NCBI RefSeq assembly: GCF_006345805.1
Contig: NC_043006.1
Span: 44,826,001 to 44,890,000 of the forward strand
Source: Octopus sinensis
Taxonomy: Eukaryota
Reading direction: 5' to 3'
Length of the DNA: 64,000 nucleotides
The notes beneath the pieces are model-generated. The model made no database searches, had not been told where the DNA came from, and saw only the letters and a program-made list of their open reading frames with translations. This document shows positions 9,016-45,158 of the stretch, piece by piece; positions within the stretch are counted from its first letter, which is position 1, and every line of letters begins with the position of its first letter. The position numbers and the translations under genes were made by a program.

Positions 9016-9294
9016 ATGTCGGAGTGTCCATCTACAGAATATGGGGCATTGAGCGAGGAGAAAGTACAAAGAGCTTTGGCTATGCTGAATGTTGAATTTA
9101 GTGAAACACTTTCAAAGCAAGCTAAGTGTAAATGTCTTCAAGACAGCATCATGAACACAGAAAATTTACCTATTATATTTGACATTATGGATGTGCTGTC
9201 GGTATCAAGTAAGGGTGCAATAACGATTGAAGAGATGAGAGAAAGAATAAATATTAAACTGATATCAAAAGAAACTGGCGGCGCAAAAGACGAG
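9016..9294 (+). CDS. Exon 1 of the GTPase-pseudokinase gene (N-terminal helical module)
   Basis: ATG at 9016, non-repetitive ORF MSECP...GGAKDE, donor GAG|gtaaga, phase 0. Candidate upstream acceptor aattcag ending 8920. Confidence 0.75.

Positions 9295-45158: not shown

Follow-up and report, generated by a model that had tools for sequence, protein, structure and literature searches.

The DNA analysed here (the window) is a stretch of 64,000 nucleotides from Octopus sinensis, G000:C10:44826001-44890000 of the genome assembly. At 9016..45158 its forward strand carries the gene LOC115216741, which is composed of ten exons; all nine introns are of the GT-AG type with matching phases, and the joined 3006 nt give 1001 amino acids and a stop. 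The exons and the elements located in them are as follows (window coordinates).

9016-9294, + strand: exon 1 (aa 1-93), small helical N-terminal domain
18039-18249, + strand: exon 2 (aa 94-163), neck helix and first half of G1 (IIVTG, from 18237)
23736-24019, + strand: exon 3, remainder of G1 (GETGAGKS) and G2 SCTST at 23810-23824
25323-25472, + strand: exon 4, G3 DTPG at 25341-25352
26765-27102, + strand: exon 5, G4 NRWD at 26867-26878, end of the G domain and start of the stalk
27729-27999, + strand: exon 6, stalk helix
29475-29660, + strand: exon 7, stalk helices
34376-35049, + strand: exon 8 (aa 574-797), stalk tip without hydrophobic hairpin, returning stalk helices and N-lobe of the pseudokinase
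34472-34525, + strand: basic, weakly amphipathic helix (aa 606-623) at the position of the BDLP paddle, in exon 8
34991-34993, + strand: Arg779 at the beta3 Lys position, in exon 8; the Gly loop is absent
43807-44047, + strand: exon 9, dead catalytic loop HPEVSLDS (compared with HRDLKxxN) at 44018-44041
44787-45158, + strand: exon 10, C-lobe with KLTGMA in place of DFG at 44808-44825, APE retained at 44886-44894, and the stop

The sequence-only reading that preceded this work had proposed ten exons spliced in frame into one ORF, and the same 1001 aa with GT-AG introns were rebuilt from the sequence. It had also called the gene hidden, a description that has to be withdrawn: the product is identical in 1001/1001 residues to RefSeq XP_029642150.1/XP_036362497.1 (Octopus sinensis LOC115216741, "uncharacterized"), a model that already carries Dynamin_N and Pkinase hits. 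The gene is therefore annotated, without an assigned function. Orthologs were found in O. bimaculoides (88%), O. vulgaris, Argonauta (51%) and, as a cluster, Sepia (42%), those of O. bimaculoides, Argonauta and Sepia being full-length and collinear; LOC115216741 itself looks single-copy.

Splicing was checked in contigs from four of the 24 runs listed, which are taken for RNA by a guess (none is recorded as RNA), though their contigs skip introns. In each of the four runs exon 8 is covered by one contig spanning 34375-35049, with loose ends that match the last bases of exon 7 and the first bases of exon 9; the exon 7-8-9 junctions proposed earlier are thus borne out. Position 24019 is joined to 25323 in 4/4 runs, with 24020-25322 (GT..AG) skipped and the contig continuing into exon 5, and contigs of exon 3 reach back into exon 2 in 3/4 runs; the letter-by-letter reading covers junctions 2-3, 3-4, 4-5, 7-8 and 8-9. 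The records of runs X3, X5 and X11 (3219, 3826 and 3571 nt) have equal length and depth in the exon 3-4 and exon 8 comparisons, and from this match we infer that exons 3, 4 and 8 sit in the same record; the spacing between exons 4 and 8 equals exactly the combined length of exons 5-7, 795 nt. The three records are long enough to hold exons 1-2 and 9-10 as well, while X2 is split in two contigs. At 43810 (exon 9) all four runs have C and the window has T, a synonymous difference. An additional exon from the ORF at 29014-29205 was considered and rejected, as the contig offsets leave no space for it.

Two features of these data might raise the suspicion that GTPase and kinase exons come from separate genes or from a decaying pseudogene: intron 8 is 8.8 kb long with a retroelement inside, and the runs are RNA only by guess. 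Three studies nevertheless provide spliced contigs with both halves, RefSeq has the identical model and the cephalopod orthologs are full-length and collinear, so that separate genes and a decaying pseudogene are ruled out and the chance of an artefact is practically nil. The retroelement in intron 8 is a long frame on the - strand (39363-41477) with hits to RVT_1 and zf-RVT and a single stop separating its two ORFs; fragments related to it lie in other introns, e.g. at 12282-13800 and 42171-43484. Intron 6 contains two tandem copies of a 184-base repeat (28277-28641), likely of SINE type since similar translated text recurs upstream. On the - strand two exons (54585-55199 and 50853-51461), each encoding one complete von Willebrand A domain (Pfam E 2e-43 and 2e-39), belong to a gene converging on the 3' end of LOC115216741.

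The Pfam/HMMER check of the two proposed domains was positive: Dynamin_N was recognized at aa 160-298 with 67 bits (cut-off 27; exon 3 alone E 2e-10) and Pkinase at aa 790-995 with 72 bits (exon 10 alone E 9.7e-12). The GTPase motifs are complete, as had been stated: G1, interrupted by the phase-1 intron between exons 2 and 3, G2 SCTST, G3 DTPG and G4 NRWD are all intact, and NRWD is also the spelling of G4 in MFN1. Judging from its sequence, the protein probably binds and hydrolyses GTP. The top PDB GTPase match by sequence is a bacterial dynamin-like protein (E 1.7e-10); the search with exon 3 returned BDLP 2j68 as the sole PDB match, and no dynamin was found in the PDB with exon 5 alone.

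An AlphaFold model was obtained from a 19-sequence alignment (pLDDT 74; pTM 0.52, too low to fix the packing of the domains), and it shows helical neck and trunk bundles from which the chain runs back to the G domain. Its best Foldseek matches were BDLP 2j69 (E 7.8e-18), IniA, Campylobacter DLP1/2 and MFN1/2, so the predicted resemblance to BDLP and MFN1 was recovered at the structural level. In VIA comparisons aa 95-722 were aligned with residues 4-735 of MFN1 5goe (Z 28.8, rmsd 4.1, 344 aligned) and aa 722-1001 with BRAF (Z 23.7) and with Src and JAK kinases (Z ~23), which places the kinase after the helix that returns to the G domain. Spliced contigs, motifs and fold matches together uphold the central claim of the sequence-only reading, that a stalk and a dead kinase are joined to a BDLP/mitofusin-type GTPase in one protein. 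Mitofusins MFN1/MFN2 and yeast Fzo1, which are among the best structural matches, have the same G domain and a neck bundle closed by a returning C-terminal helix; the octopus protein differs from them in the lack of the hairpin, the extra N-terminal helical domain, the C-terminal pseudokinase and an identity of 15-18%, and is not their ortholog.

A hydrophobic paddle or transmembrane hairpin is absent from the trunk tip, where the best Kyte-Doolittle 19-mer scores 0.81 (threshold 1.8). The tip (aa 574-630), modelled with low confidence, has in place of the hairpin the basic, weakly amphipathic helix aa 606-623 (net charge +4; moment 0.44, matched by 101/2000 shuffles; low pLDDT), which is a candidate peripheral membrane contact. 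The N-terminal aa 1-93, folded alone, reached pLDDT 82. Residues ~40-88 weakly resemble a helix-extension-helix (SAP/LEM/Rho-N-like) fold, the type to which many of the nearest matches of the domain belong, with VIA Z scores of 6.3 for the C-terminus of T4 endonuclease VII, 4.6 for Rho-N and 4.5 for the Ku70 SAP, the best of them under the trust threshold of the tool, and Foldseek gave zero matches at E 0.001; on this model the helix-extension-helix reading of the domain is a lead only.

The proposal that the kinase is catalytically dead agrees with its motifs: beta3 Lys, HRD Asp, the following Asn, DFG Asp and the Gly-rich loop are all lost. Arg779 stands at the position of the Lys, HPEVSLDS replaces HRDLKxxN (Glu871, Ser876) and Gly889 occupies the position of the DFG Asp, while alphaC Glu, the activation segment and APE are retained. 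The same catalytic changes are found in four cephalopod orthologs, of which Argonauta retains the Asn. Neither Mg binding nor phosphate transfer is thus expected of the domain. Between O. sinensis and O. bimaculoides 247/276 residues of the pseudokinase and 234/260 of the G domain are conserved (90% each); measured in this way, the pseudokinase is about as conserved as the GTPase and is not fast-evolving.

The protein had been compared with DSTYK (dusty kinase, RIPK5), which has the same domain order. In the Atlas, the feature score was 0.97 for clusters dominated by Mollusca and Cnidaria and 0.93 for DSTYK clusters; with exon 8 as the sole query no match reached 0.9. The DSTYK gene of the octopus lies elsewhere.

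G000:C16:16589870-16618935, + strand: octopus DSTYK, a separate gene with an intact kinase
G000:C16:16615923-16616276, + strand: DSTYK-signature kinase exon (DLGFCK...GTPIHMAPE)

The motif DLGFCK...GTPIHMAPE, the signature of the active DSTYK kinase, is absent from LOC115216741, and the location of the true DSTYK on C16 rules out LOC115216741 as its ortholog. When 150 kb around the DSTYK kinase exon (1891 frames) were scanned with the family profile, an upstream exon matched the family G domain (hmmsearch E 3e-5) and another gave a weak stalk match (E 0.16). In HHalign the G-domain exon was aligned over 136 columns (probability 94.4, E 9.5e-8) with G1 replaced by GQSIYTKS and G3 by VAPS, i.e. 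in a degenerate form; no alignment to the family was obtained for the stalk exon (probability 1.2). Strand and order suggest that the degenerate exon is part of the DSTYK transcript, and on sequence grounds the N-terminal half of DSTYK shares ancestry with the family G domain. By motifs, octopus DSTYK combines a dead GTPase (degenerate G1/G3) with a live kinase and LOC115216741 is the reverse. As DSTYK has a degenerate copy of the same G domain, the two proteins are mirror images of each other, and the link to DSTYK is stronger than the sequence-only reading had claimed. A partial DSTYK kinase grouped with the family (0.952) over 152/260 columns against 15 outgroups without animal RIPK, MLK or TAK1; as the kinase profile gives the partial DSTYK 132 bits, fewer than the 142 bits of an insulin receptor, DSTYK is at most a candidate for the closest kinase.

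The first reading dealt with LOC115216741 alone, and while its description of the protein stood, it overlooked a large family and an active-kinase paralog next door. Two genome queries with G exons gave two matches each (lower bounds), LOC115216741 and this paralog, whose G exons lie at G000:C10:44744039-44744317 and 44742775-44742912 on the - strand.

G000:C10:44749621-44720930, - strand: paralog of at least 12 exons with an open 934-aa frame, upstream of the window

The paralog has all kinase and GTPase motifs intact, the kinase ones being LGTGSFATV, AVK, HRDLKMEN, KLTDVG and MAPE, and its last exon is the best kinase match of an active oyster member in the octopus genome. It is 58% identical to P0079 and ~28% identical to LOC115216741 over the GTPase half, and 6/9 introns of LOC115216741 are common to both genes in position and phase. 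The two genes are divergent (head-to-head) and ~85 kb apart; between them only transposon-like ORFs were recognised, by eye. The first exon of the paralog was not found by tblastn or profile, and the assembly has a 100-base gap at C10:44780607.

The same architecture occurs in corals, soft corals, Trichoplax, amphioxus, acorn worm, bivalves and gastropods; the domain pair is visible in automatic databases, which have given a part of the members names such as "DSTYK-like" or "bacterial dynamin-like protein". From 188 proteins 81 were retained, with single full-size G and kinase domains, a stalk and a length below 1250 aa, nine near-duplicates being removed. The kinase is intact in 40 of them (all three catalytic residues), dead in 37 and without the HRD Asp only in four; these counts were taken from aligned columns, in which P0111 and P0112 are intact, and the pattern-based tree labels are perhaps wrong for P0126, P0195 and P0203. 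G1, G3 and G4 are intact in 81/81, which is partly an effect of selection by G-domain match.

Domain phylogeny had been listed earlier as a check; the 89-sequence trees put LOC115216741 in a mollusc dead-kinase clade of 22 sequences, with named members from cephalopods, abalones and bivalves (SH-aLRT 100 for G domain plus stalk; FastTree 0.99 for the kinase). The octopus paralog falls in a partner clade of 15 sequences (SH-aLRT 100) from cephalopods, gastropods and bivalves. By these trees both lineages are mollusc-wide, and in the G-domain tree they are not sisters. A recent octopus-only duplication of the pair is ruled out by the ~28% identity and the separate mollusc-wide clades. Kinase trees contain a wider dead clade of 36 sequences that adds Trichoplax, amphioxus, acorn worm and Solemya (0.97-0.99; FastTree 0.987), with many members sharing an HxELSxDT-like loop; it is broken up in the G-domain tree and may be inflated by long branches. 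With Trichoplax, amphioxus and acorn worm in it, the dead form apparently predates the mollusc partner clade. A hydrophobic hairpin (Kyte-Doolittle 19-mer of at least 1.8) was found in 0/22 members of the dead clade, 0/15 of the partner clade and 39/52 of the remaining relatives, so that it is also missing in 13/52 other family members; the sequences within a clade being kin, these counts amount to one or two events.

Several other forms were met within the family. Soft-coral P0011, P0013, P0015 and P0017 have lost the HRD aspartate alone (HRH, HKH) inside an otherwise active clade, which by their placement is a separate, later inactivation of the kinase. Three to ten tandem kinase-like domains are present in P0077, P0096, P0119, P0123, P0124, P0132, P0134 and others (best E 1e-51 against the pseudokinase), which possibly form a tandem pseudokinase family related to that of LOC115216741. 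Bivalve P0204 and P0208 (620-711 aa) have Dynamin_N without a kinase hit and may be kinase-less members or truncated models. Coral and oyster relatives P0007, P0016 and P0201 have extra Pfam hits to PF20720 (nSTAND3) or PF18738 (HEPN-type), a hint of immune-type fusions in other lineages.

Members of the two clades are neighbours in other molluscs as well, as far as can be told from accession numbers and equally long contigs, which say nothing on orientation; in octopus alone is the adjacency read from sequence. Near-consecutive identifiers join a dead and an intact member in Haliotis cracherodii (XP_071083349/50, dead; XP_071083351, intact), H. rufescens (LOC124135515 and LOC124135534) and Pecten maximus (LOC117330355 and LOC117330353). 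The comparison covers 7/14 other partner-clade members and part of the dead clade, and in 2/5 other mollusc genomes with members of both clades there is no adjacency: in Sinanodonta ACJMK2_016777 and 017072/017076 share a contig ~295 loci apart, and in Potamilus the members of the two clades are on different contigs. In Pecten a further intact gene of the partner clade lies on another contig, and with the several dead-clade paralogs of bivalves a strict 1:1 pairing is not the general case. Conserved adjacent paralogs, a feature of paired dynamin-like genes, are therefore seen by sequence in octopus and by accession in abalone and scallop.

The two genes could be neighbours merely since an old tandem duplication and act separately, the dead kinase being a docking scaffold on a housekeeping trafficking GTPase. 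Molluscan chromosomes retain old linkage for long times, and the ~28% identity, the non-sister position in the G-domain tree and the two genomes without adjacency are what this explanation would lead one to expect. It fits poorly, however, with near-immediate adjacency in three mollusc classes and with the absence of the hairpin from both non-sister clades, and we consider it rather unlikely.

The reading that we prefer, tentatively and at somewhat less than an even chance, is that LOC115216741 and its head-to-head paralog work as a kinase/pseudokinase hetero-oligomer on membranes. The LOC115216741 protein would have the regulatory part and the active-kinase paralog would be its partner; its membrane binding would be peripheral, not anchored, through the basic stalk tip. 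GTP would drive the assembly of both proteins and bring live and dead kinases beside the G domains; as the kinase of each protein is placed behind the last neck helix, next to the G domain, assembly would unite kinase and pseudokinase. The pseudokinase would act as an allosteric partner, brake or substrate of the active kinase, and membrane tethering would thereby be linked to signalling by phosphorylation. If DSTYK is a guide, the pair would act at late endosomes, lysosomes or phagosomes; DSTYK has been located on late endosomes/lysosomes, whose fusion it promotes (PMC6981171).

A precedent for such a pair exists in bacteria. According to PMC6104087, most bacterial dynamin-like protein (DLP) genes are paired, and assembly of Campylobacter DLP1/2, mediated by an N-terminal add-on domain, triggers GTPase activity and lipid binding. 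Nostoc BDLP (2j68/2j69), mycobacterial IniA and Campylobacter DLP1/DLP2 are also the top Foldseek matches; in contrast to these bacterial proteins, LOC115216741 is animal, intron-rich and kinase-fused, and the octopus pair differs in predicted kinase activity, with hetero-assembly only proposed. In our assessment the mitofusin fold, the neighbour with intact motifs, the mollusc-wide distribution of both lineages, the linkage by identifiers, the lack of the hairpin in both and the DLP precedent speak for the pair. Against it, the linkage could date from a tandem duplication, two of the five other genomes show no adjacency, 85 kb is a long distance for a promoter common to both genes, and without the hairpin the proteins may not act on membranes in any way.

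A pseudokinase switch on a helical, membrane-acting part, under an upstream active kinase, is known from MLKL/RIPK3, and LOC115216741 appears comparable in having a pseudokinase on a helical, putatively membrane-acting part and a related active kinase as candidate regulator; it differs from MLKL in that the effector part is a dynamin-class GTPase. The protein might accordingly be a stand-alone effector gated in cis, its pseudokinase clamping its own GTPase or stalk until phosphorylated by an upstream kinase, which need not be the neighbouring paralog, after which it would homo-polymerise on the membrane. The location of the pseudokinase after the last neck helix, its G-domain-like conservation with activation segment and APE kept, and the apparently greater age of the dead form (the 36-sequence clade) suit such gating. 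The four-helix-bundle killer domain of MLKL, however, was not among the Foldseek/VIA matches listed, the N-terminal 93 aa looking weakly helix-extension-helix-like; the pTM of 0.52 is too low to fix the required packing, and the kept linkage and shared absence of the hairpin would go unexplained. We regard this alternative as unlikely, if worth keeping in view.

In plants, paired immune receptors are arranged head-to-head, and pseudokinases such as ZED1/RKS1 serve as decoys; the octopus genes may be imagined as a comparable sensor-helper pair, in which the pseudokinase would be a decoy for kinase-attacking effectors and its modification would lead to GTPase assembly on a pathogen vacuole or to cell death. 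In corals, amphioxus and bivalves the family has more than one copy, and PF20720 or PF18738 hits occur in some relatives, in keeping with such a role; the two G-exon searches, on the other hand, gave just two members in the octopus genome, and between octopus species the pseudokinase is not fast-evolving. There is no direct support for the immune or cell-death role suggested initially, and we consider this explanation improbable.

Returning to the hetero-oligomer, a broader view is conceivable, and we put it forward with a good deal of reserve: molluscs would keep an ancient two-gene machine without a described counterpart in animals, in which two mitofusin-class GTPases that lack the hairpin, the one carrying a live kinase and the other a dead one, co-assemble and form a switch from GTP-driven membrane tethering to phosphorylation, and human DSTYK would be the vertebrate relative with the opposite loss, a pseudo-GTPase dynamin scaffold. 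Such a scaffold would explain the role of DSTYK in late endosome/lysosome fusion.

A description of the family, of LOC115216741 or of a GTPase domain in DSTYK was not found in the full-text literature, a coverage outside which most subscription journals fall. New are the head-to-head paralog, the mollusc-wide paired lineages, the shared absence of the hairpin and DSTYK with a degenerate GTPase domain. They outline an apparently unstudied branch of animal dynamin-like proteins with a live or dead kinase, extending from placozoans and corals to amphioxus, for which cephalopods offer a compact two-gene test case. DSTYK is the gene behind kidney malformations and spastic paraplegia SPG23 (PMC6981171), and this disease gene now receives a structural reading, in which a degenerate dynamin-like GTPase makes up the N-terminal half, for the octopus gene at least. 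Whether a DSTYK scaffold shapes lysosomal membranes, and how a kinase/pseudokinase pair is coupled to a GTPase cycle, can now be tested.
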